42,988 bases of DNA from a virus, in the IMG/VR virus record IMGVR_UViG_3300045988_130630. One strand, given 5' to 3'. Within the stretch, counting starts at the first letter, position 1, and the number at the start of each line of letters is the position of its first letter. The notes beneath the pieces were generated by a model. It ran no database searches. It saw only the letters and a program-made list of their open reading frames with translations, and had not been told where the DNA came from. Position numbers and translations under genes: made by a program. This document shows positions 1 to 15,686 of this stretch, one piece after another.

Positions 1-248
1 ATAAGAACCTTATAACCGGCGCGCAGTTTCCGCGCATAGGAGATCTTACCTACATCACCAAGGTGAATTAATAGATCGCTTCGACCGCACTTAGAATTAA
101 TTATTTTAACAATTTCTTCGTCGGAAGGACGATTATGAATTCCCTGATGAAGATCTTCGTCTCCAAAATGAGTATCACTAATAACCCAACAAGTTTGTAG
201 ATTTTTCCATCTATCTAAAAAACTTTCATAGACACCAGGTAAATTCAT
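1..248 (-). CDS. Calcineurin-like metallophosphoesterase, partial (start codon at 248, continues past the left edge)
   Basis: The reverse-complement translates MNLPGVYESFLDRWKNLQTCWVISDTHFGDEDLHQGIHNRP..LLIHLGDVGK. The D-x-H and GD motifs are those of metallophosphatases. A GGAG ribosome-binding site sits 5' of the start. Confidence 0.6.
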   Translation of the reverse strand, partial: MNLPGVYESFLDRWKNLQTCWVISDTHFGDEDLHQGIHNRPSDEEIVKIINSKCGRSDLLIHLGDVGKISYARKLRAGYKVL

Positions 249-260
249 AATTATTACTCC

Positions 261-1190
261 TTAACAAATTCTAAAAGTTGTTGTATCCAATTTCAAATCA
301 TTAATTGATAATTTATCTAAATGAAAATATGGGATTCTAATTAACGGGATGTTATTTTCTTTACACCATTGATTTTTAAAAGCATCATGTTCTTTTGTTT
401 TTTCAAACTTTTCTAATGTATTCCAACCAGTTCCAGATTGATAATGCTATATTCCATCAAATTCAATTAAATAAGAATTATCAATATAAAAATCAAATTT
501 AGCTTTATGGTTAGTATCCTAAAATTTACAATTTTCAAAAGTTTTTTCACAAATATACTAAATATTATGTTCTTTTAATAAAGAGATAATTTTTTCCTAA
601 CCTGCTGATTGTAAACAACCACAAGATTTACTTTGTCCTTTTCTTAAAGTAGTTCCTGATACAATTTTTTGATTGCCACAAGAGCATTGGCATAACCACA
701 TAGCAGTATTATGCTAATTAGATCCACTACGTTTTAACACTGTCCATCGACCAAAAGTTTGTCCTGTTAAATCAATTGTTGTAAGTTCACCGATCTTTTT
801 ATGAATATAACAACCACATGAAATAACGGCGCCACTTACTAAACCATCTTTACGAATACTTTTAATAGTTCCACAATCACACTAACATTTCCAATAAGTA
901 TGCCCTTTTCCTTCTGTTCTATCATATCCTAAAACTGTTAGCATACCGAATTTTTTGCCTGTTAAATCTTTTAACAATTTTAAACGTTTCTAACATCCGC
1001 ATGAAGTGGTATGATTTGAAGTTAAATGAGACGCAGAAACTACTGTTTTATTACCACATTCACATTGGCATAACCAATATGGTCCGTTCCTTGGGTCTTC
1101 AACTCGATATAAAACTGTTAATTTTCCAAAATGCTAATTAGTCAAATCTTTTGCTCGGCCTACTGGAATCTATTTATAAATTTTTTCCAT
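261..1190 (-). CDS. TAG-recoded protein with three Cys-rich Zn-ribbon repeats and a C-terminal Vsr/DUF559-like (PD-(D/E)XK) endonuclease motif; putative homing endonuclease
   Basis: A 309-codon frame is open only if its 9 in-frame TAGs are read through; it has no TAA or TGA until 263. There is a strong ribosome-binding site (AAGGAG) before the ATG at 1190. The protein has three repeats of FG.LTVL...YW.C.C.CGN...SCGC. The C-terminus is KFDFYIDNSYLIEFDGI(TAG)HY, with the TAG at the conserved Gln of EYDGxQH. Confidence 0.6.
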
Positions 1191-1285
1191 AAAATCACTC
1201 CTTTTCTATTATATATATAAATAGAAAAAGATAGAATAATGAAATTTACCCGAAGTCGCCAACCCGATTATTTAACCGGGCCTCC

Positions 1286-1561
1286 TTAAAATGCGTAAGC
1301 ATTAAATTTATACATATAGAACTCGCCATCCATAAGAAGAAGTCTATCAATCTCTTCTCGATGATCGATCTTCCACCAATCAGGAGCAGAAAGAGGAAGA
1401 TCGTAATACTCGATTCGCTGAGTTTCCATAATATCTTCTTCGATTGCGCCTTCGAGGAAAGCAAGATATAACTCTTCCGCTTCTGCCTCAGAGATGTTGG
1501 CGAATGTCCAAGACTTACCAGTCATTTCATCTTCGATTTTATAACAAGTAATTTCTTTCAT
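1286..1561 (-). CDS. hypothetical protein (91 aa)
   Basis: Supplied ORF track, standard genetic code; acidic small protein. Confidence 0.45.
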   Translation of the reverse strand: MKEITCYKIEDEMTGKSWTFANISEAEAEELYLAFLEGAIEEDIMETQRIEYYDLPLSAPDWWKIDHREEIDRLLLMDGEFYMYKFNAYAF

Positions 1562-1572
1562 AGTTATTCTCC

Positions 1573-1893
1573 TTACATTTCAACCGCATCAACGAAATCA
1601 ATGAAAACATCATTTGCGACCTCGTTCATCATATCGAGATAAGAAGAAAATCTCCTTGTCCATTCGCCGGTCATCTCACCGTGGTAAAGATACCAATCAT
1701 AATCGGAATCTTTCTGAATCATTTCGAACTGACGCTCCATAAGACTATCATCGACCATATCTCGACAATATTCCATAAACATTTCCTGCATATCAGCCTC
1801 GGACGCATTCAGGAAATAGAAATTATGGTCTCCGGCCGTATCACAAAGAATACCAATGGAATGAGTTTTAATCTTAGAATTAGAAGTAGTCAT
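1573..1893 (-). CDS. hypothetical protein (106 aa)
   Basis: Supplied ORF track; standard code. Confidence 0.45.
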   Translation of the reverse strand: MTTSNSKIKTHSIGILCDTAGDHNFYFLNASEADMQEMFMEYCRDMVDDSLMERQFEMIQKDSDYDWYLYHGEMTGEWTRRFSSYLDMMNEVANDVFIDFVDAVEM

Positions 1894-1961
1894 AATTTTT
1901 ATTTCCTTTCTTTCTTTACTTTATATATATATTATATATTATTTTTTATAAAAAATCAAAA

Positions 1962-1990
1962 AAGGATTTGCGGTTTGCGCAAATCCTTTA
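1962..1990. terminator. Perfect 9-bp hairpin GGATTTGCG/CGCAAATCC flanked by A and T tracts
   Basis: Inverted repeat read directly from the sequence, lying between convergently arranged gene ends. Confidence 0.5.
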
Positions 1991-1994
1991 AAGA

Positions 1995-2210
1995 TCAGAG
2001 AACGGGAGCATAATTATAATAAATAATCATATCTTCCAATGCATTTTTGTAAAGTCCTGTATCGAATTTATGACAATGGAATCGTTTCTCAACATTCTCT
2101 TCGATCGCGGACATAGCGATTTCAAGAGCGTTAGATCCACTTACATTTGTAGCGCAATAAATTTCATCACAAGGTGCGTCATAAACGAATAAGACAGGCA
2201 TATGTTTCAT
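1995..2210 (-). CDS. hypothetical protein (71 aa)
   Basis: Supplied ORF track; GGAGG ribosome-binding site upstream (plus-strand positions 2213-2222). Confidence 0.45.
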   Translation of the reverse strand: MKHMPVLFVYDAPCDEIYCATNVSGSNALEIAMSAIEENVEKRFHCHKFDTGLYKNALEDMIIYYNYAPVL

Positions 2211-2268
2211 ATATTATTCCTCCATTAATTGATTTTACCCAAAATTTTTGTTATAATATATTTAGAAA

Positions 2269-2514
2269 TTAAAAGATTTCAATCGCGTCTTCAAAAAGAT
2301 TGAGAAATTCATCAGCTACTTCGGAAGTCGCGAGAAGGCCGGTAGAAGAACCGCCATACCAATCAATATAGATGCGCGTGAGTGGACTACCGCCAGCTTC
2401 CGCAATCTCATCTGCATATTGCTTAGAATCAACCACGGTAAAGCTAACACTATTAATATTGTTAGTATTGATAAGATACTTAAAACCGCGGAAGTTGTGT
2501 AAAATTACAATCAT
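2269..2514 (-). CDS. hypothetical protein (81 aa)
   Basis: Supplied ORF track. Confidence 0.4.
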   Translation of the reverse strand: MIVILHNFRGFKYLINTNNINSVSFTVVDSKQYADEIAEAGGSPLTRIYIDWYGGSSTGLLATSEVADEFLNLFEDAIEIF

Positions 2515-2798
2515 CTAAATGCCTCCTCAGAAACAAAATTTTTGAGTTGTCTTATAACTCTCATGCCGTCAGGATCATTGTCGCTGAAAGTGTATTCGAA
2601 GTGAGATTTATCATTCATATAAAATTCAAGTTTTGTTCCTTGGGACTCGATAGAGATATTATTATCATCATCATTATCATTCATAGTGATACGATTAGCG
2701 AGAACCGCAATGATATCATTTGCATTAAGAAAAACGCGGTCGCCATTAGACATTTTTAAATAAATCAATTCACCTTTATTCATTTTACTTCTCCACAA
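2511..2798 (-). CDS. hypothetical protein (95 aa)
   Basis: Supplied ORF track; a 4-nt overlap with the downstream gene indicates translational coupling. Confidence 0.45.
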   Translation of the reverse strand: MWRSKMNKGELIYLKMSNGDRVFLNANDIIAVLANRITMNDNDDDNNISIESQGTKLEFYMNDKSHFEYTFSDNDPDGMRVIRQLKNFVSEEAFR

Positions 2799-3384
2799 TA
2801 TAGTCTTTCGCTACGTCTGTTCCTTCTGGAATATAAAGATAAACTCGTGCTGATTTAGAGCAGATAAAGAACCACTCTCTCCAATCACCATAACGCGGGA
2901 TACGCTTTTCAACGTGCGGAACCTGATTAGAGTAAACAACCACCGTGTCATTTGCCGGATAATTCTTAGTGCTTGTAATGCCATCAGCGCTAAGAGTAAG
3001 ATAAGTATAATAAATACTTTCACCTTCGAAGGCTCGGTAAGTATAGATACAGCCATCATCATCCATACTTGTTAGCTCTTGGGCTTCCGTAATTGTATAA
3101 TCATATTCGGAATAATCCTCTTTAACAGAAGACATCATAACTCCGCCGAACATACTTACGGCAAGATAAAGACAAACGCCGATCCAAAAGGCAGGAATAA
3201 TTTGACGGGGAATGTCAACGCGGTCGCGGTGAGACCAGTTGCGGAAGTGCTTGGCCTTAGGATCGGAAAGAGTGCTGTAATAGCCATAGCTACAATAGGC
3301 AGAATGAATGGCGAAAATCAGAAAAATAATTAAGGTCGGTAGAACAAATCCGCCCACCAGCGTTTTCAAGAAGAAGACAAACAT
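2785..3384 (-). CDS. membrane protein (199 aa; N-terminal and central transmembrane segments)
   Basis: Hydrophobic stretches in the supplied ORF translation. Confidence 0.5.
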   Translation of the reverse strand: MFVFFLKTLVGGFVLPTLIIFLIFAIHSAYCSYGYYSTLSDPKAKHFRNWSHRDRVDIPRQIIPAFWIGVCLYLAVSMFGGVMMSSVKEDYSEYDYTITEAQELTSMDDDGCIYTYRAFEGESIYYTYLTLSADGITSTKNYPANDTVVVYSNQVPHVEKRIPRYGDWREWFFICSKSARVYLYIPEGTDVAKDYIVEK

Positions 3385-3398
3385 ATTTAAAAACTCCT

Positions 3399-3848
3399 TT
3401 AAAGAATAGGTTTGAGGTTATCGCAGTAATTGAAATCTCTCATACAGCCATTTTCCTCAGTGAAACAAGAACAACCATTTTGGCAAGTTTTACGAACAAT
3501 GTCGGGATTACGGACATTCATAACGGCTTGCATATTTCCAACGATTTCTCGCTTTTGGACCATTTTCGGTGTGTCGGGAGAAGCATCAAACGCGCAGTTC
3601 ACATTTTGTTCACAATTTTGGCACGTGCCAAGTTTTGCCCAACATTTATCGCAATAAGTGTTGCCTTGATCGTCGATGATCATTTGCTTATGGAAAATTG
3701 GAGTATGACATGCTTTACAAGTGTAATATTCACCGCAAAGAAAATTATCGCAGATCGCATGATTTGGATCAATTGTGTTGCCTGTGATTTGACATAATCC
3801 GGTCGTTGGCCGGTAATAACCGCAGTTATTACAATAAAAAGTCATCAT
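3399..3848 (-). CDS. cysteine-rich protein with multiple CxxC pairs (149 aa), putative multi-Zn-ribbon protein
   Basis: About 24 Cys residues arranged in CxxC pairs in the ORF translation. Confidence 0.5.
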   Translation of the reverse strand: MMTFYCNNCGYYRPTTGLCQITGNTIDPNHAICDNFLCGEYYTCKACHTPIFHKQMIIDDQGNTYCDKCWAKLGTCQNCEQNVNCAFDASPDTPKMVQKREIVGNMQAVMNVRNPDIVRKTCQNGCSCFTEENGCMRDFNYCDNLKPIL

Positions 3849-4099
3849 AGCATTTTAGCAGAATATGGAGCATCTTCGTCGTCAAATTTTAGAATCTTAT
3901 CGGCGAGTTCGCGATTAACGCGCAAAGGACCATCGTTAAGAGGAGTAAATGCGACAGTGATAAGACCATCGAAGTATTCCTCGGCCCACTGACCGGCTCG
4001 CGCGAGATTTTCTGCGAAGATAAAACCGCACGAAAGTCTATCTATTTTATCGTCTTCATCCCAATAGCGCGCTTCATAATAAACGGGATACTGATCCAT
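3845..4099 (-). CDS. hypothetical protein (84 aa)
   Basis: Supplied ORF track; ATGA overlap with the upstream gene. Confidence 0.45.
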   Translation of the reverse strand: MDQYPVYYEARYWDEDDKIDRLSCGFIFAENLARAGQWAEEYFDGLITVAFTPLNDGPLRVNRELADKILKFDDEDAPYSAKML

Positions 4100-4115
4100 A
4101 TTTATTCTCCTTTCT

Positions 4116-4454
4116 TTAAGAAATTGTAGAGATTAAAAAGATCTCAGGGTCATCGAGCGTCTCGATGGGGATTTTGAGAAACTTTGCGTAAGCTTCCTTC
4201 ATTGTGTCATTAAGGCGATAATACTCTTGTGGAGCGATGAAGATATTGTCAATGCGGACGGCCTCTCCCGAGTCAGAAGCACCGAGAAGATAACCAAAGA
4301 TAGGGTTCTCATCGTCATCATAGTAGCTCGCGCGATGCCAATATCCTGCTTCGGTAAGCTGTTCGATAGCTTCAGCCATATTATCATAGTTCTCAAGAAG
4401 GTTCTTGGGGACTTTATAACCGCACACGAGTTTAGAACCAAAATCAACAGACAT
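4116..4454 (-). CDS. hypothetical protein (112 aa)
   Basis: Supplied ORF track. Confidence 0.45.
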   Translation of the reverse strand: MSVDFGSKLVCGYKVPKNLLENYDNMAEAIEQLTEAGYWHRASYYDDDENPIFGYLLGASDSGEAVRIDNIFIAPQEYYRLNDTMKEAYAKFLKIPIETLDDPEIFLISTIS

Positions 4455-4455
4455 A

Positions 4456-4653
4456 TTACTTGTCCTCCTTAAGAATAGAATTGATAAAAGTGCTATATTC
4501 AGTGGGTCTTACACAATACGCGGTTTTTGTTCCATTATCCCAAAAAACATATATAAGCTTGTTAGATTCAGAATTTTTTACGGCAATTGAATAAATATGA
4601 GTCGTATTAATGATATGAGTTTGACCTAAATAATCAATAAGCTTAGCAAGCAT
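4456..4653 (-). CDS. hypothetical protein (65 aa)
   Basis: Supplied ORF track; AAAGGTG ribosome-binding site upstream. Confidence 0.4.
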   Translation of the reverse strand: MLAKLIDYLGQTHIINTTHIYSIAVKNSESNKLIYVFWDNGTKTAYCVRPTEYSTFINSILKEDK

Positions 4654-4788
4654 TTTTTATCACCTTTAATAGTTTTTCTTTATTTTATATTTATATTATA
4701 TATTAAAATTTAATAAAAATCAATAAAGCGGTTTTGTCGCCTTAGGGTGGCGTAGAGACTGGATTCAATGATCGGCTTATCAAAAATG

Positions 4789-4895
4789 GTCATTTTAAAT
4801 GAAAATGGTCAAAATTTTCTGATAAATGGTCAAAAATTTCTATACTTTTGTCCGTTTTTTTCTATATTTCTGGTCAAAAATTTCTGATGAAGAGA
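4789..4895. repeat. Four direct repeats of about 15 bp, TGGTCAAAA(A)TTT(T)CT (iteron family 1)
   Basis: Read directly from the sequence. Confidence 0.6.
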
Positions 4896-4952
4896 TCGGA
4901 CAGCAAGTATAGAGGCGGATTAGGGCAAAGGAAACCGCATAGGTAAAAATTT

Positions 4953-5172
4953 TAGGTAATTTTTCATAGTTGCTTATAAAAATGTTAAATAAAATAGGTA
5001 ATTTTTCATAGTTGCTTATTTTTATATAGATGTCTAAATTTTAAACAAAATAGGTAAAAATTTTAGGTAATTTTTCATAGTTCCCTATTTTTATTTAGAA
5101 TTTGTAGGTAATTTTTAATAGTTAGCGATCGGTTTAGTTAGAATTTTTAAGAAATTTTTCATAGTTGCCTTT
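4953..5172. repeat. Five direct copies of the 23-bp iteron TAGGTAATTTTTCATAGTTGCTT (iteron family 2); three further copies lie at 5873-5961
   Basis: Copies begin at 4953, 4995, 5065, 5105 and 5150, with partial copies at 4940 and 5051. Downstream copies begin at 5873 and 5906, with a partial copy at 5939. Confidence 0.7.
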
Positions 5173-5246
5173 AAAAATATACTTTGGGTAAAAATTGTTA
5201 AAATTACTATTTTAGATTTGAAGTATATATGAAGGAGGTGGAAGCA

Positions 5247-5879
5247 TTGTCAGTAGAGTAGAAAAGATTTCCTGCTAATGTAGATATGAATATATTAACT
5301 TTTTTAAATAATAAGAAAATAAATGGTGAATTATATGCTTATTTATAGAGTTTATCTGAATATAATGTTATTAGTAAATAGCATAATATTTATAAAACTT
5401 ATGTATTGAAAAAATGGTTGCCAATTCAAAGTAAGATGTGTCAAATGCTTGGTATTAAAAGCCCTAAAACATTAAAAACGCATTTGAATTATTTAATTGA
5501 ACAAGGGTATATTATAGAAGAAGAAGATAGATATATATTACCTGAAATGGAAAATATATATTTTCTTATTCCACTACATACATTAAGATATATAAATGAT
5601 AACTGTAAAGAACATATTATAAAGATATATATTTATTTAGGATAGCGTTATAAATATGCATTAAATAATGGAAGTTAGTATGAATTTACATTAGAGGAAA
5701 TTGGAGAACATAGTGGTATAAAAGTAAAGAATAACAGCAGGGGCTATGAGATTATTAATAATGCTTTAACATTTTTATAGAATTCAGAATTAATTGATTA
5801 TGTTAGTTTTTTTGATGGGCAGATGCAGAAAAAGAAATTAACAAAATTTAGTTTTGAATATAAAAATTAGAATAGGTAA
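5247..5879 (+). CDS. TAG-recoded winged-helix DNA-binding protein, putative replication initiator or origin-binding protein (about 210 aa)
   Basis: TTG start 5 nt after GAAGGAGGTGGA. The frame is open to a TAA at 5877 only if 7 TAGs are read through. The translation contains ..KSPKTLKTHLNYLIEQGYIIEEEDRYILPE.. (a winged helix-turn-helix). The gene is flanked on both sides by the 23-bp iterons. Confidence 0.5.
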
Positions 5880-5992
5880 TTTTTAATAGTTGCCGATGAG
5901 CATTTTAGGTAATTTTTCATAGATGCTTCGACTTAAATTAGGTAAAAAATCATAGATTATCTAAGTAATAAGTAGAGGGTGTTTTCTAAGTA

Positions 5993-6044
5993 GTTTGTAT
6001 GATACAAACGATCGGCATCCGCCTCACTTTGTATCATACAAACG
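5993..6044. terminator. Perfect 17-bp inverted repeat (GTTTGTATGATACAAAC ... GTTTGTATCATACAAAC) with an 18-nt loop, followed by TTTGATTTTT; terminator or operator
   Basis: Read directly; each arm is itself nearly palindromic. Confidence 0.5.
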
Positions 6045-6080
6045 TTTGATTTTTAGATGAAAAGAAAGGTGATAAATAAA

Positions 6081-6365
6081 ATGGTTAATGAAGAAAGAAG
6101 AATAAATTCTTTAGATTATGCTATGTATGAATTTTTAGATCAAATAGGTAAAACAGATTTAGCAAAAGATTTATTAGAAGGGGTTATTTAGTATTATTAT
6201 GAGAGTAATTATTATGGAGATAATGAATTTGTAAAAGAATATTTAAAATGGTTTAGTTAGGGATATTTAGATAGAATAATTAAAGAAAATTATATGGAAT
6301 TAATGATAGATGAAAGTTAGAAAGATATTCGTGAAAAATATAAAGAAGAATTAGATTTAAATTAA
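6081..6365 (+). CDS. TAG-recoded hypothetical protein (94 aa, 3 TAGs)
   Basis: AAAGGTG ribosome-binding site; frame open from the ATG at 6081 to a TAA at 6363 with TAG read through. Confidence 0.5.
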
Positions 6366-6415
6366 AAATATTATTATTGGTAAATTATATCTTAGAGTAA
6401 AAGGAGTAAAAGGTA

Positions 6416-6730
6416 ATGATATATGAAAATATAAGAGGAGGAAAGGGAAATCCTTCAATAGTAAAATTTATGAGAGGAACGCAAGAATAGTTTGATAAGA
6501 TGGATAAAACAAATATGGTAAAACCTGATTTATATTTAAAAGATGACACTATTTATTTTGTTATTCCAGATAATACAAAACCAATTAAGGTAAAGTATGA
6601 TGATAGAAAAGTAGAATGGAATGAATCAGGAGTAGGAAGTTTAGTTAAAAATAATGATAGACCTGAATCAATAGAAGAAAATCCATTTTTACAAGAGTCA
6701 ATTAACTCGGATACTACGTATCCTCGTTGA
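6416..6730 (+). CDS. TAG-recoded hypothetical protein (104 aa, 1 TAG); C-terminus ..SDTTYPR
   Basis: AAAGGAG ribosome-binding site; the ATG at 6416 is in frame with track ORF 6500-6730 through one TAG. Confidence 0.5.
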
Positions 6731-6919
6731 TAAGGGTATTATTGACTTCGGGCATAAATGCCCTCGTTGATAAGGGCTCTACTTGATTTATAATAAATAA
6801 TATATTATAATATATATAATAAAAGAAAAAATGAAATGAAAAATAATACCCCGTAGGCAGGGAGGATCGTAGATCCGAGTCGCCTGCCCGCGTGGCGAAC
6901 GCAAAATGAAAGTAAGGAT

Positions 6920-7309
6920 TTGAAGATTGAAATGAAATTTACAACTGAAGAATTAAAGAAGAATAATGGAGAAAAGGTAGGCGTCTTCCGCAATTGGAAT
7001 GTAATCGCAACTACTAAGAAAGAGTTCTTTAATAGAGAGAATACGCAAGGCGCATACCTTATCTGGGACGACTGCAATAAGTTGGTTTTTAATGGTAAGG
7101 TTGTTGGTCGAATTACCGAGCAAGGTAAGGTGAATTATATCGAGAATGAATATAGATATGTGAAGCCGGTTCTGGAAACTTCGGGCACAAGTGCCCTCGT
7201 TGATAGGGTTGCTCCTGGATCAGAAGATGTGGATCTTAGTAAGCGCACGCTTGCTGATGACATTCTTGATAGTGCGTTTAAAATAAAGTTGGAGGAGCTT
7301 TTAGTGTAA
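6920..7309 (+). CDS. hypothetical protein (129 aa, standard code) carried inside the insertion
   Basis: Supplied ORF track; weak ribosome-binding site; contains an internal repeat copy. Confidence 0.35.
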   Translation: MKIEMKFTTEELKKNNGEKVGVFRNWNVIATTKKEFFNRENTQGAYLIWDDCNKLVFNGKVVGRITEQGKVNYIENEYRYVKPVLETSGTSALVDRVAPGSEDVDLSKRTLADDILDSAFKIKLEELLV

Positions 7310-7415: not shown

Positions 7416-7596
7416 GATGGTGAGTTTATATTGGCTTATCCGCTTCTGGATAGTAATTAAATTGATGGGTAAAGAATTGGAAGACGTGGAATAAAATTAT
7501 AAAGATTGGTGGAAACGTTGAAAATTGCGTTTGTGTGGTGCCGATCGGTTTAACTAACTACCAATCACATTTTCCCCGTCTCCGTTCTCCGAACCT

Positions 7597-7634
7597 AAAA
7601 AAAAGAGAGACTTTTTTTAGTCTCTCTTTTTTCA
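7597..7634. terminator. Bidirectional rho-independent terminator (AGAGAGAC/GTCTCTCT hairpin flanked by A8 and T7 runs)
   Basis: Read directly. Confidence 0.6.
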
Positions 7635-7699
7635 TATTAGGCAATTCTTGGTGAAATTGTCAATTCTTAGGATGAAATATACCCCACCTGAATAAGTTT

Positions 7700-8077
7700 T
7701 CACTTGTTAATGAAAGTATTCAAAAAATCGGCAATTACATCATCGTCAGTTCTCTTAACCTTCTTAACCTTTACCTTCTCACTCTTGGGAAAAAGCACAT
7801 CAAGAAGATCGTTAACCCCGGTCATAAGACCATAAACCTCAGCAAAGATATTCTCCACATCGGACGCGGTCAACTCAGAATCCTTGTGGCCATTAAGAGC
7901 GGCATACTCGTTAATCCGATCGGCGATTTCCTGCGCGAGCGCGGTCTTCCGATCGGCCTGCTTGGACTCCTTCTCCACCTGCGCGACCGCAGCGTTCAGA
8001 GACTTAGCCATTTCGTCCGCAATAGCCTGAGCGTCCTCACCATTCTTCAGACGAGCAATAATATCATTCATATCCAT
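7700..8077 (-). CDS. hypothetical protein (125 aa)
   Basis: Supplied ORF track. Its promoter is at 8109-8137. Confidence 0.55.
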   Translation of the reverse strand: MDMNDIIARLKNGEDAQAIADEMAKSLNAAVAQVEKESKQADRKTALAQEIADRINEYAALNGHKDSELTASDVENIFAEVYGLMTGVNDLLDVLFPKSEKVKVKKVKRTDDDVIADFLNTFINK

Positions 8078-8108
8078 ATGAATACCTCTTTTCTTATTTT
8101 CTATATAT

Positions 8109-8137
8109 ATTATATACTATTTTTTTAAAATTGTCAA
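8109..8137 (-). promoter_or_regulatory. sigma70-type promoter (TTGACA, 17-bp spacer, TATAAT) for gene 7700-8077
   Basis: Reverse-complement of 8109-8137 reads TTGACAattttaaaaaaatagtaTATAAT. Confidence 0.55.
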
Positions 8138-8239
8138 GATTTTTTTAAATGAAAACATACGCGTGAAACAATGTAAGGGCGAAGCAATTTTTAATTAATC
8201 ATAAAGGCATATGATCCTACGCGGGCTTAAAAAAGTCTT

Positions 8240-8590
8240 TTTTTATCATTATAACATATTTTTTATAAAAAGTCAATTTTCGGGATTTTTTTGGGCCATA
8301 TGGAGAGGTGCTAGAAGTACGAAAAATTTTGCATATGGGTATACCGATCGGGAAATCGGCCCGCGACGTTCCACCGCGGGCCGGCCAAATAGACTGAGCA
8401 TTCCGGGATTTTAGTCTGAGTCTATTTTAAACACTTTTTTCGCACAAAATTTGCTAAACCTATAATTATTCCGAAATTCCGCCCGGAGCGTCAGTGATCG
8501 GGCGGTCCATTATACCACATTTTCCGATCGGTGTCAATAGGTAAAATGCACAAAAAAAATCAGCAGGTTTTAGTCAACCTGCTGATTGAA
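8240..8590. ncRNA. Non-coding structured region with two GC palindromes (8358-8382, 8479-8505), an imperfect hairpin (8391-8430), a minus-strand promoter (8509-8538) and a terminator (8559-8586); one copy of the convergent-promoter module family
   Basis: No ORF with a ribosome-binding site is present. The palindromes GGCCCGCG..CGCGGGCC and CCGCCCG..CGGGCGG were read directly. Confidence 0.35.
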
Positions 8591-8593
8591 TAT

Positions 8594-9010
8594 TTATGCA
8601 AGAAATGCGTTTACAATTTCATCGAACACCGTGGGGTTAATGTCCACGTTAAAAAAGCGGTCGTTCTTGCGGAACGCTTTGGGGTAGCGTCTAATCAGTT
8701 CCGCACGCAACGCGCTTTCCGCACCCTCGGCGGGATAGTCCCCGCAAGAACGGATTCGATGAATTTCAACGCGCGTGATAGCATACTTTTTTGCATACTC
8801 GCCGATTTCATCACGCAAACGCCCTACAACATCTTTTGCGGAAGTGCCTACTTTGTTAAATTCAAGTTCGTCGTTGTGGTAAAACTTGAAAAAGTAAACC
8901 GCTTGTTCATTTTTCAGATTCTCGCCACAATCAGGCATGAATTCCATAGAAACGGGCGGTCTACCGTCCTTAAATCGGCGTAGCTTAATAGTAATTTCTT
9001 CCATTGGCAC
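8594..9010 (-). CDS. T5orf172 / GIY-YIG-like domain protein (about 137 aa)
   Basis: Contains AVYFFKFYHNDELEFNKVGTSAKDVVGRLRDE, matching the [YF]-h-x-K-h-G-x-T...RL..L core of the T5orf172 family. AGAGAGGA ribosome-binding site. Start is either the ATG at 9004 or the GTG at 9010. Confidence 0.45.
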   Translation of the reverse strand: MPMEEITIKLRRFKDGRPPVSMEFMPDCGENLKNEQAVYFFKFYHNDELEFNKVGTSAKDVVGRLRDEIGEYAKKYAITRVEIHRIRSCGDYPAEGAESALRAELIRRYPKAFRKNDRFFNVDINPTVFDEIVNAFLA

Positions 9011-9025
9011 AAAATCCTCTCTGTT

Positions 9026-9054
9026 GATTGAGGTTTACCATCGTTCTCTCAACC
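9026..9054 (-). promoter_or_regulatory. Conserved 29-bp 5'-leader element GGTTGAGAGAACGATGGTAAACCTCAATC (hairpin GGUUGAG/CUCAAUC), copy 1; copy 2 at 12272-12300
   Basis: The identical 29-mer lies between the promoter and the ribosome-binding site of two different genes (8594-9010 and 11470-12246). Confidence 0.5.
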
Positions 9055-9084
9055 ATTATTTTTTGCACTTTTTGACTTGTTTTG

Positions 9085-9120
9085 GGGTGAAAAACCGCAT
9101 TTTTCAGCGGTTTTTCACCC
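9085..9120. terminator. Terminator with a perfect 14-bp stem (GGGTGAAAAACCGC / GCGGTTTTTCACCC)
   Basis: Read directly. Confidence 0.6.
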
Positions 9121-9127
9121 TTTTTCG

Positions 9128-9535
9128 TCAGTTTTTGGGCTTTCGCTTCTGAATCAGGGTCAATTCGTAGTCATTTTCGCCCACATGGAACGCAATCATG
9201 CGCTCCACATTCGTAATTTCCACGTTTTCGCACGCATTTTCGCTGTTTTCACGCAAAAAAGTAGCGAGTTCCGCGATAATCGAGCGTTTTGTGGGGTTTT
9301 CCTTGCGCTGTCGCTTTTCAAACTTATAAGCGGTCGGCGCTTTGCGTGTTCCGGTCTTAGAATACTTGTTAGCTTCTTTGAGCTTTTCTGCGGACAGGTC
9401 AAAGTCCTTGGCAATTCCATGGTCAATGTCATCATCGTCCATGAGAATTTCTTTTGCTTCCTCGGCAGTACAATCCAACTTTTTCATCAGATTGTCAATC
9501 TTTGCCTGAAAGTCCTTTTCACTCATTTTAGGCAT
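9128..9535 (-). CDS. hypothetical protein (135 aa)
   Basis: Supplied ORF track; AAGGGGG ribosome-binding site; promoter at 9560-9589 (TTGACA, 18-bp spacer, TATAAT). Confidence 0.55.
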   Translation of the reverse strand: MPKMSEKDFQAKIDNLMKKLDCTAEEAKEILMDDDDIDHGIAKDFDLSAEKLKEANKYSKTGTRKAPTAYKFEKRQRKENPTKRSIIAELATFLRENSENACENVEITNVERMIAFHVGENDYELTLIQKRKPKN

Positions 9536-9599
9536 TTTCTTTGCCCCCTTTCAAGTATGATTATAACACCGCCGTTAGCAAATGTCAAGAGAAATTTTT

Positions 9600-9630
9600 G
9601 GGAGCGCCTGATTTTTTTCAGGCGCTCCCC
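9600..9630. terminator. Terminator hairpin GGGAGCGCCTGA / TCAGGCGCTCCC
   Basis: Read directly. Confidence 0.6.
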
Positions 9631-9635
9631 CTGAA

Positions 9636-10013
9636 TCAGTGGGCGAGACGGAAGTAGGACTTGCGCTTGTCCACAATCTTCTCGACGCCGTTCGCTTCAA
9701 TCATCTGACGCAGAAGAGCGGAAACGCGCTGATTGGTGAGGTCGCCCAGACCGTCCACGTTCTTGATGAGTTCGGTCACGGTATACAGCTTGTCAGGATT
9801 CGCGGACAGCTCGGCAAAGATAATGTCCTTGTAGCCGTCGTTGGCAATCTGATTCGCGGTCGGCTTCTTGTCACCGGCGTTCTTGCGGGACAGCAGGTCG
9901 ATTTCGTGGTTGATAAACTCAACCATAGCAGGGTCAGCCTGAACCTCGGACAGTTTGAGCAGAGCCTCGAAACGGTCGCGCTTGGTGAGCTTCTTAACAG
10001 TAGAAGTAGACAT
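9636..10013 (-). CDS. hypothetical protein (125 aa), paralog of 12389-12769
   Basis: About 70% identical to the product of 12389-12769. Both share the identical ribosome-binding-site context AAAGGAATTGATACTATGG and the same promoter type. Confidence 0.6.
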   Translation of the reverse strand: MSTSTVKKLTKRDRFEALLKLSEVQADPAMVEFINHEIDLLSRKNAGDKKPTANQIANDGYKDIIFAELSANPDKLYTVTELIKNVDGLGDLTNQRVSALLRQMIEANGVEKIVDKRKSYFRLAH

Positions 10014-10019
10014 AGTATC

Positions 10020-10700
10020 AATTCCTTTCTTTGGCGGTAGGTCGCTACCCTTTTGATATTATTGAGTATACCACACTTTGGAGTGCTTGTCAAGAGGTTT
10101 CGCAAACTTTTCACACGAATTACTACCCCGACCTGACGGATAATTTATTGTTTGTTGATTCAATCTATTTGTCAGCGGAAAACCGCGTCAAGGATAGTTG
10201 GTTCAATCAAACTCACTTTCGCGTTCAACGTTTGGCTTTACAACGTGGTGTATTCTGTTTACTTCCTATACTTTCTCAAGGTCGCGCGCCCTCGGATTTC
10301 TTGGGCTACTCCCTCTCGACATTTTCTATTGTAGCACACTCGCTGGGATTTGTCAAGAGGTTTTCAAGAAAAAACTCATGAATTTTTTCTTTTATCCCGT
10401 GCGTTCCGCTCCGAAGAGACCTTAACGTAATAGGCGAACGGTCTATTGCTACTTCCAACCGTAGCCCCACACCGACCTGTGGCTCAGGGGTTCCCCTCTT
10501 GACATTATTTATTGTAGCACTTTTCGCACTACTTGTCAAGAGGGAATTTCAAATTTCTTTGAAAACGGGTCAGTTACCGAGTTATCACACCCATCAGCGA
10601 AGCCGTTCGGCAATTCACTGTTCCCTCTTGACATTATCCATTATAGCAGATTGCCCATAGATTACAATTGACAAAATAACCAAATTACGGGAAAAAATTT
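10020..10700 (-). promoter_or_regulatory. Tandem array of four sigma70-type promoters (-35 hexamers at about 10085, 10360, 10525 and 10660 in plus-strand coordinates) with no convincing downstream ORF; three place ATGTC(A/G)AGAGGG 2-5 nt after the -10
   Basis: Reverse-complement reads CCTCTTGACA, 17 bp, TACAAT, then aaATAATGTCAAGAGGG. Repeated three times; the first copy drives gene 9636-10013. Confidence 0.45.
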
Positions 10701-10725
10701 TCTTCATTTTTGTGCAACTTTTCTC

Positions 10726-10754
10726 TTGACAAAATTGGCGGGGCGTGGTATAAT
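10726..10754 (+). promoter_or_regulatory. Plus-strand sigma70-type promoter (TTGACA, 17-bp spacer, TGGTATAAT) of module B, firing into the GC palindrome at 10764-10788
   Basis: Read directly. Confidence 0.5.
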
Positions 10755-10792
10755 GGTGAATTCGGCCCGCTTTGGGCGTTGGCGGGCCGGCC

Positions 10793-10821
10793 ATTTTATC
10801 ACAAAAATCCGCGTTTGTCAA
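10793..10821 (-). promoter_or_regulatory. Minus-strand promoter (TTGACA, 17-bp spacer, TAAAAT) of module B, convergent with the plus-strand promoter
   Basis: Reverse-complement reads TTGACAaacgcggatttttgtgaTAAAAT. Confidence 0.45.
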
Positions 10822-10835
10822 TAGACAAAATAGAC

Positions 10836-10870
10836 AAAAAAAACTACCCATTTTTGGGTAGTTTTTTTAT
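10836..10870. terminator. Bidirectional terminator (CTACCCA/TGGGTAG hairpin with A8 and T7 flanks)
   Basis: Read directly. Confidence 0.6.
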
Positions 10871-11116
10871 TCAATCCAAAAGGTTAATCTCGCCGGGAAT
10901 TTTGAAAGAATCAGCGTCCAGCGTGGAATTGTAGTCCTCGGTAAAGAGTTCAATCATTCCACATTCCATGATGTAATTCTGCACCGCCCGCTGAACATTT
11001 CTCCAAAGGTCAGTCTTTCGGCTTTCCTCACGGGCTTTTCTGGCTTCCTGTATCTGGATAATGAGTTCGTCCAGTTCCTCGTCGGTCATGTAATTAAAAT
11101 TCAAATCCATTTTCAA
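10871..11116 (-). CDS. hypothetical protein (81 aa)
   Basis: Supplied ORF track; ATGA overlap with the upstream gene. Confidence 0.5.
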   Translation of the reverse strand: MKMDLNFNYMTDEELDELIIQIQEARKAREESRKTDLWRNVQRAVQNYIMECGMIELFTEDYNSTLDADSFKIPGEINLLD

Positions 11117-11391
11117 AACTCCCTTTTAATTGCTTTTTCCCACACTTCACGACCGAATTTTCTCTCGCGGTCTAACTTCTTGCCAATGTCTTTTGCGGTC
11201 AGCAGGTCAAGCTCGTCCGCAATCTCGGCTTCAAAGTTTACCCAAAAGTCGTAGGTCTTGATGATGAAAACTTCATCGGCTTCAAAGACGCCGCCGCACT
11301 CGGCGCAGATAATATAGTCATGGTCGATTAAAATGCCCATGTGAGGGTCATTGTCATCAGGGACTACAAAAAGAACTTGTTTAGCGTTCAT
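11113..11391 (-). CDS. hypothetical protein (about 92 aa; start MNAKQVLF, with CxxC)
   Basis: AAAGAGG ribosome-binding site before the ATG at 11391; consensus promoter at 11421-11449. Confidence 0.5.
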   Translation of the reverse strand: MNAKQVLFVVPDDNDPHMGILIDHDYIICAECGGVFEADEVFIIKTYDFWVNFEAEIADELDLLTAKDIGKKLDRERKFGREVWEKAIKREF

Positions 11392-11420
11392 GTGAAACAC
11401 CTCTTTCATTTGATATATTG

Positions 11421-11449
11421 ATTATACCATAGGGAATAGGACTTGTCAA
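11421..11449 (-). promoter_or_regulatory. Consensus sigma70-type promoter with extended -10 (TTGACA, 17-bp spacer, TGGTATAAT)
   Basis: Reverse-complement reads cTTGACAagtcctattccctaTGgTATAAT. Confidence 0.6.
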
Positions 11450-11469
11450 GCCCTATTCCCTATTTTTTT

Positions 11470-12246
11470 TTAGCTCATGTTTACAACGGGATTTTCCTTA
11501 ATGTTTCGCATGAGCGCGCGCTGAAACTCGGTCGGCTTGGGGCGTTCCACCGTGGGAGCTTTGAAAAGGGATTTTTCCATGGGTTTGTGCTGTCGGACGC
11601 AATAGCGCAGAATCTCAACTTCAATGAGAACATCTTCAAGTCCCGTATGCGATTCATCAAAACTGTCCTCGCCGCTGATAAAGCGGTAGAGAATTTCTGC
11701 GGTAAAGCGGAGCTGTCCGTTCTTGGTCTTGTAGCCGTTCTTTTCGCAATAGTCGCGGTAAGTGGGCATCTGACCGATAACCTGTCGCGCCATTTTCAAG
11801 GTGTCCCAGATTTCAAGGTCATAGGGGAAGAAATAACGATACTTGCTTTTCGTGTCCCATCTTTGCGCATTGTTGCAGGCGTTCAAGTCGAACCGCATAT
11901 TATGAGCGCAGACAAAAGAGCAGTTATAACGCTCGACACATTCGCAGAACGCCTGACGAATTTCGTAAAGGTCAGCCATAATGCGCGAACCATTCTTAAT
12001 GTCCTCAATGTAGCGAGGAATCTTGTCGGCGTAGTATGCGGACTGCATGAGGTCGCGCTCGTAGCAGAAAATGTCGCGATTCACAAAGGAATAAGTTTCA
12101 TAAACATTTCCCTTGGAATCAATGACCGCCCAGCCGAAGTCGTAGGGAAGTACATTTGACATATCCAGCTTATCGCCGTCCTGAATGGTGTTTGCGGTTT
12201 CCGTGTCCAGCATAATGCCGTAGTTTTTGCGCCTATCAATACCCAT
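11470..12246 (-). CDS. DEDDh-family (DnaQ-like) 3'-5' exonuclease (258 aa)
   Basis: Exo I motif MLDTETAN, Exo II CAHNMRFDLN and Exo III HTGLEDV. AGGAGACG ribosome-binding site. Promoter TTGACA, 17-bp spacer, TGcTATACT at about 12305-12335. Confidence 0.6.
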   Translation of the reverse strand: MGIDRRKNYGIMLDTETANTIQDGDKLDMSNVLPYDFGWAVIDSKGNVYETYSFVNRDIFCYERDLMQSAYYADKIPRYIEDIKNGSRIMADLYEIRQAFCECVERYNCSFVCAHNMRFDLNACNNAQRWDTKSKYRYFFPYDLEIWDTLKMARQVIGQMPTYRDYCEKNGYKTKNGQLRFTAEILYRFISGEDSFDESHTGLEDVLIEVEILRYCVRQHKPMEKSLFKAPTVERPKPTEFQRALMRNIKENPVVNMS

Positions 12247-12350
12247 CTTATCGTCTCCTATTGGAAAAGTAGATTGAGGTTTACCATCGTTCTCTCAACC
12301 TCTGATAATAGTATAGCACTTTGCTATTGGTTTGTCAACAGTTTTTTTGT

Positions 12351-12380
12351 AGGGCAGGGGATTTTTTTTATCCCCTGCCC
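12351..12380. terminator. Terminator (GGGCAGGGGA / TCCCCTGCCC hairpin around a T8 run)
   Basis: Read directly. Confidence 0.6.
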
Positions 12381-12388
12381 TTTTCCCT

Positions 12389-12769
12389 TTACGCGAGGGA
12401 GAAGTAGGACTTGCGCTTGTCAACCGTCTTGACAACGGTGTTGGCTTCAATCATCTGACGCAGAAGAGCGGAAACGCGCTGATTGGTATACTCCGCGAGT
12501 TCGGGAACGGTCTTGATGAGGTCGGTCACGGTATACAGCTTGTCAGGGTTCGCGGTCATCTCGTCCAGAATGACCTGCTTCACAGCGTCATTCTCCATCT
12601 GCTTGGCCGTGGGCTTCTTGTCGCCCGCGTTCTTCTTGGCGAGCAGTTCAATCTCATGCTCGATGAACGCCACCATATCAGGATTTGCCTGAACCTCATT
12701 CATTTTGAGCAGAGCCTCGAAACGGTCGCGCTTGGTGAGCTTCTTAGTAGTAGAAGTAGAAGTAGCCAT
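12389..12769 (-). CDS. hypothetical protein (126 aa), paralog of 9636-10013
   Basis: See the paralog at 9636-10013. Promoter at about 12825-12855 (TTGACA, 17-bp spacer, TATAAT). Confidence 0.6.
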   Translation of the reverse strand: MATSTSTTKKLTKRDRFEALLKMNEVQANPDMVAFIEHEIELLAKKNAGDKKPTAKQMENDAVKQVILDEMTANPDKLYTVTDLIKTVPELAEYTNQRVSALLRQMIEANTVVKTVDKRKSYFSLA

Positions 12770-13274
12770 AGTATCAATTCCTTTCTGGTTTTTAAGACTG
12801 TCCTTGTCTTTGATGTAGTTATTATATCATAGGCGGAGCAGGTTGTCAATAGTTTTTACAAATTTTTTTTTAGGGGCGGTCGCGAGGTTTATTACTATAC
12901 ATCTTGTTTATGCCTACCTTTATCTATACTCTTAAACCAATTCAATTTACTAAGCCATTAGTTTTTAAGGCGGTGGGCGAGCATTAGAAGTCATCTTGTT
13001 TTTACCTCTCTCATTTGATGTATTCATTATACCATAGGTCGAGCGGTTTGTCAAGGGGTTTTTCAAACTTTTTTTGAAAGTTTGTTCGGCACGCCACGCT
13101 TGGAACATTCCTTGTGTCGGCTTCTGGTATGATGGTCAAAGGAACTGCCTTTCCGTAGGTCTTACTCTTTCCTCCTGACATTATGTAGTATAGCAGATTG
13201 GAACTGATTTGTCTATTAACGAAATAACCAAATTACGGGAAAAAATAAAATTGAAATTTGTGCGAAATTTCTCT

Positions 13275-13302
13275 TGACAAAAATGCTGGCAGGGTGTATA
13301 AT
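13275..13302 (+). promoter_or_regulatory. Plus-strand promoter (TTGACA, 16-bp spacer, TATAAT) of module C, firing into the palindrome CCGGCCG..CGGCCGG (13311-13337)
   Basis: Read directly. Confidence 0.5.
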
Positions 13303-13340
13303 GGTAAATTCCGGCCGTAGCGCGCGGAAACGGCCGGCCA

Positions 13341-13369
13341 ATTATATCACATTTAAGGAACTTTGTCAA
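13341..13369 (-). promoter_or_regulatory. Minus-strand promoter (TTGACA, 17-bp spacer, TATAAT) of module C
   Basis: Reverse-complement reads ctaTTGACAaagttccttaaatgtgaTATAAT. Confidence 0.5.
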
Positions 13370-13382
13370 TAGTCAAAGTAAA

Positions 13383-13420
13383 CAAAAAAAATCTCCCCGT
13401 TTTGGGGAGATTTTCTTTTA
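13383..13420. terminator. Bidirectional terminator (ATCTCCCCG/CGGGGAGAT hairpin with A8 and T-rich flanks)
   Basis: Read directly. Confidence 0.6.
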
Positions 13421-13675
13421 GCCAATTACATTGACTTCGGTTTTGACAGGCGTCACCATCTTGTCGCGCGAGAACTCGCGAACCTGACCCGTTTCAAGAT
13501 TCACCGCGTAGCAATACTGCGAACCTCTCGACCGGACAAACGGCGTGTTGTTGTTGCTGTCAATTTTGAGATACATTCCCATACCGCTACCGTTGGAGCG
13601 CAGAGTGGTGAACGTGCCACCGCTGAGAATGTTAATAATTTGGAGCTGACCCTTAGTGCCAAAATTTACTTTCAT
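13418..13675 (-). CDS. hypothetical protein (85 aa)
   Basis: Supplied ORF track; GGAGAAA ribosome-binding site. Confidence 0.5.
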   Translation of the reverse strand: MKVNFGTKGQLQIINILSGGTFTTLRSNGSGMGMYLKIDSNNNTPFVRSRGSQYCYAVNLETGQVREFSRDKMVTPVKTEVNVIG

Positions 13676-13849
13676 TTTTATTTCTCCTCTCTTAAAGCAG
13701 ATGGGTATTAACCCATTCTGCGGTCACAAGTCCGATTTCCTTAGAGACAACCGTTTCATAGCGGTAATTACCGCCATCAGTTCGTCCGGTCACTTTGGCG
13801 AGAACGCCAAGTGTCAACCAAAAATAAGGCATCATTTTTTTACCCCCTA

Positions 13850-14050
13850 TTACTTACTGCTCGGAAAGATAGCGCCCAGAAGTGCGAGGATAATCCAAAC
13901 CACGAGCGCCAGCTTCCACGAGAACACGATAACAAAAGTGCCGATTGCGGTGATACCGAGGGCGGGAAGAAGCCAGCAGAGAAGCCAGACAAGGCCCGAA
14001 GTAGCAAGGAACGAAAACGCGAGAGACAGCAGAATCAAAAGAACAAACAT
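13850..14050 (-). CDS. small membrane protein with two transmembrane helices (about 66 aa)
   Basis: Start taken at the third Met (MFVLLILLS), which has an AAAGGGGAAAA ribosome-binding site. Promoter at about 14075-14110. Confidence 0.5.
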   Translation of the reverse strand: MFVLLILLSLAFSFLATSGLVWLLCWLLPALGITAIGTFVIVFSWKLALVVWIILALLGAIFPSSK

Positions 14051-14104
14051 TTTATTTTCCCCTTTCATTTGATACATTTATTATACCATTGGAGTAGGGC
14101 TTTG

Positions 14105-14605
14105 TCAAGCCCTTTTCTCCAAAAGTTCCGAAAGTTTTTCGATAATGTTTACTGCGGTCGGGTCAATGGTTTCACCCAAGTGCCAACCATTCCGAACCTT
14201 TTCATTATCGTCAACCAAGATGGACACGTCATAGCGGTCGCGCACGCTGTCGGCCTTAGTCGCGCCATACTGGACGCCGTGAAAGTGGTCATAGTGGAAG
14301 CCCTGTTCTTCAAGCCACGCGCGCTTTGCTTCACGCACGAGGTTTTTGTATTCCTCGCTCGAATCTTTGGAAAGCCAAGTGATGATGTTGATTTCCCAGC
14401 CCTCGGCGCGGAGAAGTTCGCAAACCTCATTCAGTTCAGCCATATTGCACATGGGAACAGCAGTTCGATAGGGCTTAGGATTTTCCGAACGGAGAAGTGC
14501 AAGCCAATCCTTGACGCCGTAGAGGTCAGCAATAGTGCCGTCCATGTCAAAGTTGATGGAACGTCGAGTGGCCACAACGTGGGACTTGATGTAAGTGATT
14601 TTCAT
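14105..14605 (-). CDS. HAD-superfamily 5'(3')-deoxyribonucleotidase-like phosphatase (166 aa)
   Basis: N-terminal FDMDGTIAD (the DxDGT nucleophile motif) and later DD motifs, as in NT5C-type deoxynucleotidases. Confidence 0.55.
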   Translation of the reverse strand: MKITYIKSHVVATRRSINFDMDGTIADLYGVKDWLALLRSENPKPYRTAVPMCNMAELNEVCELLRAEGWEINIITWLSKDSSEEYKNLVREAKRAWLEEQGFHYDHFHGVQYGATKADSVRDRYDVSILVDDNEKVRNGWHLGETIDPTAVNIIEKLSELLEKRA

Positions 14606-14673
14606 AGGTATTACCCCTTTCCTTTACTGTATCTGTATTATACCATACATCTGCGCGGTTGTCAAGAGAAATT

Positions 14674-14964
14674 TTAGCAATTTCCCGCTTTATTTATCCA
14701 TTCTTTCCATTTATCTTTGGCAAACTTTTTATATTCTTCTTGCCAAATACCACCTGCAATGGCTTCTTTTACTGCGTCATCAATAGAAAGATATTGGTTG
14801 GGAAAAACAAAGTCATCACAAAAGAACCGAGTTCGACCAAAGAATTTGCGGTTAGGGCGGATAACTTCATCAACAGAGATATAGATTAGCCCATATGATT
14901 CATCGTTGTATACCTTAGCCTCAAAGGTTCTTCCCTCATATTCATAAGTTTTCGGCTTACTCAT
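14674..14964 (-). CDS. hypothetical protein (96 aa)
   Basis: Supplied ORF track; promoter at about 14990-15025. Confidence 0.5.
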   Translation of the reverse strand: MSKPKTYEYEGRTFEAKVYNDESYGLIYISVDEVIRPNRKFFGRTRFFCDDFVFPNQYLSIDDAVKEAIAGGIWQEEYKKFAKDKWKEWINKAGNC

Positions 14965-15051
14965 AGCGTTTGTCCTCCTTTACTATGCTTGTATTATACC
15001 ACTATTGGATTTGCTTGTCAAGTGTTTTTTTCAAAATTTTCGCGGTCTTTC

Positions 15052-15669: not shown

Positions 15670-15686
15670 AGGCAAAATAAATAAAA

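Follow-up and report, generated by a model that had tools for sequence, protein, structure and literature searches.

How is one to read a stretch of phage DNA that the standard genetic code breaks into fragments, and, if it is a gene after all, what is it doing there? The stretch in question occupies 930 nucleotides near the start of a 42,988-nucleotide piece of viral DNA (IMG/VR record IMGVR_UViG_3300045988_130630), which as a whole we refer to as the window. An initial annotation, made from the letters alone, saw in it a recoded nuclease with tandem zinc-ribbon repeats. Our own answer, which draws on sequence, on a predicted structure, and on analogy with known systems, is that it is quite probably a free-standing homing endonuclease gene (hereafter HEG) of the Vsr-like/EDxHD superfamily. 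Each part of that answer—that the frame is translated, that its product is a nuclease, and that the gene moves—poses its own problem.

A reading frame interrupted only by TAG

Two features define the frame and its end, beyond which lies the downstream phosphoesterase gene (pe).

261 to 1190, minus strand: coding sequence of the putative homing endonuclease (HEG), 309 codons plus TAA, with nine TAG triplets read as Gln
249 to 263, minus strand: right end of the HEG, its TAA overlapping a second AAGGAG ribosome-binding site that would restore translation of pe (from the sequence and the junction alignment)

The initial annotation had described a minus-strand frame with nine TAGs and no other stop, and so it proved: 309 sense codons run to a TAA without a single internal TAA or TGA, and the TAGs stand at codons 7, 19, 67, 103, 159, 198, 211, 224, and 248. 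It was also right that a standard-code scan would miss the frame, the largest open reading frame inside it being 46 amino acids long. How surprising is such openness? The remaining five frames of the region hold 8–36 TAA or TGA triplets each, and none of 20,000 shuffles of the region gave an open run of 309 codons (the longest reached 211). The signals for translation are where they had been reported, with a strong ribosome-binding site, AAAGGAG (1204–1198), 7 nt 5' of the ATG (1190–1188) and, at the other end, the HEG's TAA (263–261) lying over an AAGGAG (262–257) that is placed 8 nt 5' of the phosphoesterase ATG (248–246).

One could still suppose that the nine TAGs are genuine stops and that what we have is a decaying pseudogene or noncoding DNA; the standard code, after all, splits the frame into pieces of at most 61 codons, and the window yielded no suppressor tRNA. 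Such a supposition has to contend with a probability of about 2e-10 (computed from the base composition of the region, GC 0.29) that 309 codons would lack TAA and TGA, with HEG variants that differ at 18 codons and retain all nine TAGs, and with the terminase, portal, and other structural genes of the window, which become long open reading frames when TAG is taken as sense and carry up to 10 in-frame TAGs each. It must also contend with the orthologues, among which TAG and CAA exchange at eight alignment columns and dN/dS is 0.16–0.29. Gln248, the Gln of DGxQH that 67 of 69 relatives share, is itself a TAG codon in the HEG; among the seven distinct HEG sequences read, this codon is TAG in five (the window, L005, L016, L019, and L020) and CAA in L017, and the DGIqH of L018 falls out of register, opposite window codon 243. 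Taken together, the TAG/CAA exchange, the TAG-encoded Gln248, the kept TAGs, and a dN/dS of about 0.2 lead us to reject the pseudogene, which we regard as barely credible, and point instead to a real gene under selection that can be read only with TAG as Gln.

All HEG orthologues examined (60–100% identity) are TAG-recoded as well. Within the window, the gene stands out from its immediate surroundings: at GC 0.29, it uses TAG for 9 of its 17 Gln codons (53%), whereas its same-strand neighbours have GC 0.38–0.43 and no TAG, pe also being TAG-free. What, then, reads the TAGs? ARAGORN found tRNA genes neither in the window nor in the 12 related loci scanned with it (L001–L012), so whatever reads through TAG must lie in another part of the ~190-kb genome. 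Composition also varies along the window as a whole, which falls into two compartments (7500–26000 vs. 1–7300 and 26000–42988). The central ~18 kb has GC 0.40–0.50, mostly small minus-strand open reading frames, and hardly any in-frame TAG; TAGs are many in the structural block and in several small islands, where GC is 0.21–0.34.

Cys-rich repeats and a Vsr-like nuclease domain

What protein would such a gene make? Four parts can be set out along it.

993 to 1148, minus strand: Cys-rich repeat 1, D15 to C66, DLT..FG.LTVL...W39-x-C41-x-C43-x-C45-G...S63-C64-G-C66
810 to 968, minus strand: Cys-rich repeat 2, D75 to C127, from sequence comparison
615 to 773, minus strand: Cys-rich repeat 3, D140 to C192, from sequence comparison
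264 to 608, minus strand: predicted Vsr-fold (EDxHD-like) nuclease domain, S195 to C309, from fold and motif

The tail had been assigned to a Vsr/DUF559-type endonuclease with a C terminus of the FDF..IEYDGxQH type. The motif is indeed there (F232-D233-F234 ... I242-E243-F-D245-G-I-Q248-H249), and PHROG endonuclease families match the protein, but Pfam thresholds, that of DUF559 included, were not reached. A database search returned 5,705 relatives of the protein. Its matches to PHROG 374, 559, 9084, and 7140, which are labelled HNH, homing, or intron-encoded endonuclease, span 5e-61 to 1e-17; for the families labelled homing or HNH endonuclease, the span is 1e-25 to 5e-61. With the HEG protein itself, no Pfam model came up to threshold (DUF2726 scored 15.1 bits vs. 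24.7), and NCBIfam gave sub-threshold matches only. Across the relatives, the weak Pfam matches were to DUF2726 (its threshold is reached in some, such as P0083 with 28.2 bits), DUF5889, DUF559 (E only ~0.01–0.08, in few relatives), PvuRts1I-N, and RAP, mostly Vsr-like or PD-(D/E)XK families. With no Pfam model at threshold, the Vsr/DUF559 assignment comes from fold and motif and not from Pfam membership. Sequence searches of PDB chains with the protein, a full-length profile, and a nuclease-domain profile gave nothing meaningful, and structural comparison alone succeeded: in the AlphaFold2 model of P0001, a database protein 97% identical to the HEG protein (pLDDT 90.7), the nuclease domain is found to have the Vsr fold.

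Candidate active-site residues are Q198/E199, D233, E243, D245, H249, D269, and K272, and those from D233 onward are invariant in 69 relatives. An hhalign comparison with Vsr, weak as it is (probability only 4.6%), sets Q198, D233, D245, H249, and D269 opposite E25, D51, H64, H69, and D97, with the invariant D245 occupying the x of EDxHD. Position 198 (codon at 597–599), the equivalent of Vsr E25, is Glu in 63 of the 69 relatives and Gln in the HEG. Within the HEG clade (the window and L016–L020), codon 198 is TAG in three sequences and CAA in L018 and L019; in the next-closest orthologues, it is GAG (Glu), and in the HEG, an acidic residue (position 199) follows Gln198.

Ahead of this domain lie the repeats, which had been described as three in tandem of about 45 amino acids, with a Cys4 set in each. 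Three there are, 40–43% identical to one another, but their period is 60–65 amino acids (the figure of about 45 fits the FG...SCGC core only), and each has not four but five invariant Cys residues, WxCxCxCG...SCGC. In the AlphaFold2 model, repeat 1 is predicted to form three beta strands and a short helix, as is each of the others. No Pfam model matched these repeats in the protein or its 69 relatives, and Pfam found no NUMOD or helix–turn–helix in the N-terminal two-thirds of the HEG protein, a region taken up by the three Cys-rich, beta-rich repeats. Foldseek found no match in the PDB below E 1e-3; its weak top matches were tandem Tudor domains, because the protein has three small beta modules. 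In the viral structure library (BFVD), 223 proteins match at E ≤0.001, with annotations that include homing endonuclease, group I intron protein, treble-clef zinc finger, DUF2726, and AP2. The number of repeats varies among the best 120 relatives (3 copies in 47, 4 in 45, 5 in 19, and 6–8 in 9), and seven of the 120 consist of repeats only, four to eight of them, with the nuclease absent.

The HEG thus appears to encode three Cys-rich repeats and a Vsr-fold nuclease, with metal-binding and catalytic residues that look intact in the sequence and the model. Might the nuclease domain nevertheless be inactive or vestigial, the repeats doing the work of a sequence-specific DNA-binding regulator? 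Gln in place of Glu at position 198 would suit such a protein, as would the repeat-only relatives and the annotation of some relatives as regulatory proteins. It is hard to see, however, why a vestigial domain should keep D233, E243, D245, H249, D269, and K272 invariant or why purifying selection should extend over the whole protein, and the sporadic distribution and co-converted flank described below would be unexpected for a regulator. We consider a regulator highly improbable.

If the product is a nuclease, of what kind is it? On the modelled structure, it belongs with the EDxHD/Vsr-like homing endonucleases, whose prototype is I-Bth0305I of Bacillus phage 0305phi8-36 (PDB 3r3p), which as a dimer touches ~60 bp and produces 2-base 5' overhangs (PMC3239194). 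HMMER detects no sequence similarity between the two proteins, and the first residue of the EDxHD motif is Gln in the HEG and Glu in I-Bth0305I. The latter belongs to a group I intron and binds DNA through NUMOD/helix–turn–helix elements, whereas the HEG is free-standing and has its three Cys-rich repeats. Neither is the HEG protein a mismatch-repair enzyme; it is without the zinc site of Escherichia coli Vsr (PDB 1cw0) and the context of its intercalating Trp.

The closest published description is that of a “large unrecognized outgroup of EDxHD/Vsr HEGs” with three to five CapR-like ~60-amino acid domains in phage introns of groups I and II (PMC12350094), examples being the terL-intron open reading frame of Kayvirus (Staphylococcus) and gp34 and gp36 of Bacillus phage Mawwa; the open reading frames in the terminase-gene introns of these phages share the HEG's nuclease domain. 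The plan is the same in both (three to five tandem zinc-knuckle modules of ~60 amino acids followed by a nuclease of ~110), and so is the nuclease motif, SxGE...FDF...IEYDGxQH...D..KN...RIPY. By tblastn, identity is 26–30% over 81–91% of the query, BFVD structural matches run from 1e-10 to 1e-26, and in that library the HEG protein's structural neighbours carry the annotation homing endonuclease or group I intron protein. The repeats differ in form, HxxCG...CPxC in the outgroup and WxCxCxCG...SCGC with five Cys in the HEG; an hhalign alignment of the two repeat profiles has a probability of 9.9% (E 0.003), with the CG knuckles in register, and Pfam CapR, DUF4379, and DUF723 are matched by none of the 69 relatives. 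Unlike the published outgroup, the HEG copy is both intergenic and TAG-recoded.

A literature search for CxCxC repeats together with homing endonucleases found nothing. One may be tempted to see in WxCxCxCG...SCGC an undescribed modular DNA-reading repeat, coupled to dense TAG recoding as an expression lock, and although we think this doubtful, its consequences are easily stated. Each ~60-amino acid module would contact a fixed stretch of bases, making the array a natural retargetable zinc-module nuclease, and the lock would permit expression of the selfish gene only inside phages that have already switched their genetic code.

The intergenic site and its mosaic neighbour

Where is this gene found, and where is it missing? 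Related contigs were fetched by way of the upstream 91-amino acid gene and the downstream metallophosphoesterase gene, pe; they are 97–197 kb long and come mostly from one IMG/VR sample, with human-gut ENA assemblies in addition. The features that matter at the two edges of the HEG are as follows.

1281 to 1288, minus strand: left junction TAAGGAGG, the upstream gene's stop codon fused to a ribosome-binding site that serves the phosphoesterase directly in HEG-less phages
1191 to 1280, minus strand: leader of the putative mobile cassette, missing from HEG-less phages in the junction alignment
69 to 248, minus strand: first ~180 nt of pe, apparently foreign and carried with the HEG, encoding the metal-binding motifs SDTHFGD and HLGD
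1 to 68, minus strand: native continuation of pe, which runs off the window (the whole gene encodes 246 amino acids and has no TAG)

Among 13 IMG/VR contigs with this pe gene, the HEG is present in three and another member of its family in one. The search for related phages without the gene, which the initial annotation had proposed, was thus amply rewarded, the other nine being empty, with the flanking genes joined directly. The left junction, TAAGGAGG, is identical in all 13. At the nine empty loci, it is followed by 5 or 6 nt (ACTAA, ATTAA, or ATATAA) and then by ATG; in the three HEG-bearing contigs, as in the two window-matching ENA contigs, the cassette with the HEG comes directly after it. 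Within the leader are a small hairpin (CCCGG..TCGGG), an element that is AT-rich and promoter-like (TATATATATAATAG), and, at 1204–1198, the HEG's AAAGGAG. The same TATAAT-containing leader stands upstream of the orthologue in L016, so that it travels with the HEG. AT-rich ATATATAATA-type elements precede several other operons as well as the HEG, and a sigma-70 consensus scan called no promoter for the HEG leader. Elsewhere in the window, at 27293–28348 on the plus strand, is a phage sigma-factor-like gene (PHROG 5767, 9e-55) with a perfect TTGACA-N17-TATAAT promoter upstream and a C-terminal Cys4 zinc-ribbon-like tail in its product.

The family member in L004 (5285–6160 of IMG/VR 3300045988_126669) is TAG-recoded, has four repeats, and is 37% identical to the HEG protein. 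It lies at the same intergenic point, where it uses the native ribosome-binding site and ATG position of pe, and the foreign pe tract beside it is longer, about amino acids 1–150. A different member at the same point makes the site 5' of pe a hot spot for the HEG family. Two further members, of 40–41% identity, lie close by: one in L003 (5955–7160) just downstream of pe, where 1.2 kb replaces 63 bp of L005, and one in L007 (2334–3029) ~2.3 kb upstream.

The HEG is also better conserved than what surrounds it. The window, L001, and L008 have the very same HEG DNA (100% identity), and L012 departs from it by four synonymous changes, whereas the adjacent upstream protein in those copies is only 78–88% identical; where HEG-plus loci are aligned, identity climbs to 100% across the HEG and is 84–96% in the flanks. 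Pairs of HEG-plus and HEG-minus phages occur on three different backbones (L008/L007, L005/L003, and L012/L011), and the orthologues examined, which span seven contexts, all lie directly 5' of a Metallophos gene, with differing upstream neighbours. An intron-encoded origin was considered and rejected, since the HEG lies between two separate genes. Rfam, at its gathering threshold, found no family anywhere in the window.

The neighbour on the right (27 bits with Pfam Metallophos; cutoff 21.5) is a mosaic. Over its first 180 nt, which are AT-rich, the HEG-plus alleles are 98–100% identical to each other, and HEG-plus and HEG-minus alleles share 46–65% identity vs. 80–100% further downstream. A more distant phage, L016, whose HEG is a 74%-identical orthologue, makes the same point from the other side. 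Amino acids 1–66 of the window's phosphoesterase are 79% identical to those of L016 and 56% to those of the HEG-minus sibling L003; for amino acids 67–150, the figures are reversed, 51% to L016 and 92% to the sibling empty allele. It follows from this reversal that pe is chimeric, its 5' end having come in with the HEG, and in the alleles compared, each HEG copy is accompanied by a foreign start of pe, ~180 nt long. That the right boundary is uniform, at pe nucleotide ~180, could mean that there was a single ancestral acquisition followed by ordinary recombination instead of repeated homing.

Presence or absence at one precise intergenic site and an element more conserved than its flanks, next to a mosaic neighbour, are what we find here, as for a free-standing HEG, and the sequences indicate that the gene was recently copied between related gut phages and that 180 bases from the start of the adjoining phosphoesterase gene went with it. 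Need it be purely selfish? The same biochemistry would serve a domesticated nuclease of competition or exclusion, one that destroys co-infecting relatives or excludes their pe-region markers, and a lineage that stays stably linked to one and the same target gene, even in phages diverged to 60% identity, would suit such a role. The HEG is present, however, in only about a quarter of close relatives, with identical copies across diverged backbones, and patchy presence with identical copies fits a spreading element better than a retained adaptive gene. We therefore hold domestication to be improbable, although homing and domestication are not mutually exclusive.

The window contains two more genes that the initial annotation counted, with the HEG, as three recoded mobile nucleases.

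21563 to 22363, minus strand: GIY-YIG endonuclease, 266 amino acids, 2 TAG (Pfam GIY-YIG; SegE_GIY-YIG 24 bits)
31337 to 31693, plus strand: stand-alone Vsr-like nuclease, 118 amino acids, GTG start, 3 TAG, a distant paralogue of the HEG nuclease domain

The GIY-YIG gene is confirmed by Pfam (23.4 bits vs. a cutoff of 22.6); it forms an AT-rich island (GC ~0.30–0.37) within a region of GC ~0.42. The gene at 31337–31693 is indeed a paralogue (26% identity to the HEG nuclease domain over 85 amino acids, E 3e-8) and does sit between the large terminase and portal genes, but its mobility, and with it the count of three, finds no support, since all 78 of the related IMG/VR loci have the gene. At 56–97%, its identity there tracks or exceeds that of the terminase C terminus (51–100%). 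Universal presence and divergence in step with the terminase are the behaviour of a fixed core gene and not of a sporadic homing element, and the product is possibly a packaging-associated nuclease. The window's terminase itself is nearest (47%) to those of Enterococcus phages VRE9_4 and H1, Geobacillus E3, and the gut phage Phass-1.

A proposed route of homing and what it means

How might the HEG spread? In a mixed infection, its tandem repeats would bind a long site in an HEG-less allele, the candidates being the TAAGGAGG/ATG junction and the first ~180 nt of pe, with their conserved metal-binding motifs (SDxHFGD and GD). The Vsr-like domain would then break the DNA, probably as a dimer like I-Bth0305I, and recombinational repair would copy the heterologous block—leader, HEG, and foreign pe 5' end, window ~69–1280—from the HEG-plus genome. 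HEG-plus genomes would be immune because their junction is split and their pe 5' end has diverged, differing at 35–54% of bases. A search for target palindromes in the 5' region of HEG-less pe found nothing above chance; CAGAC-G-GTCTG (a 5+1+5 palindrome) is present in all empty alleles, at a chance expectation of about once in five such regions.

Timing may matter as well. With more than half of its Gln codons TAG and none in its same-strand neighbours, the HEG should depend for its translation on the phage's switch to TAG read-through, which would come late in infection, when several genomes are present. A late switch of this kind has been proposed for recoded phages generally (bioRxiv 10.1101/2021.08.26.457843); late-only translation of the HEG is something that we infer, partly by analogy, since the window and the fetched loci hold no suppressor tRNA.

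Much of this has a precedent. Free-standing homing with co-conversion is known in T4-like phages, for SegF, SegG, and MobE among others (PMC2988022 and PMC2790892), and the likeness is considerable: the genes are intergenic and patchy among relatives, a neighbouring conserved gene is apparently targeted, and the flank is co-converted, leaving the carrier with a diverged immune allele. The T4 enzymes differ in having GIY-YIG or HNH catalytic domains, whereas the HEG's is Vsr-like, with homing deduced here from comparative genomics only.

As we read it, then, the HEG is not a new kind of element; as a free-standing, TAG-recoded, Vsr-like homing endonuclease gene, it adds one well-documented case to a kind already known, and the TAG recoding of large gut phages is already established. 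What it does make plain is that standard-code annotation of recoded gut phages conceals whole gene classes, selfish nucleases included. The comparative evidence for recent homing with co-conversion is unusually clear, and the natural donor, recipient, and product genomes, along with a 180-nt candidate target window, make homing by Vsr-like (EDxHD) nucleases, which have been little studied, directly testable. The Cys-rich repeat array, abundant as it is (over 5,700 relatives in the database and 223 matches among viral structures), is uncharacterised and bears the label “HNH endonuclease” in PHROG families; a family definition for it would improve the annotation of phages and might provide a new scaffold for DNA binding. 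Finally, a gene with 53% of its Gln codons as TAG amid TAG-free neighbours suggests that mobile elements adapt to a phage's alternative code and, perhaps, may be confined by it.
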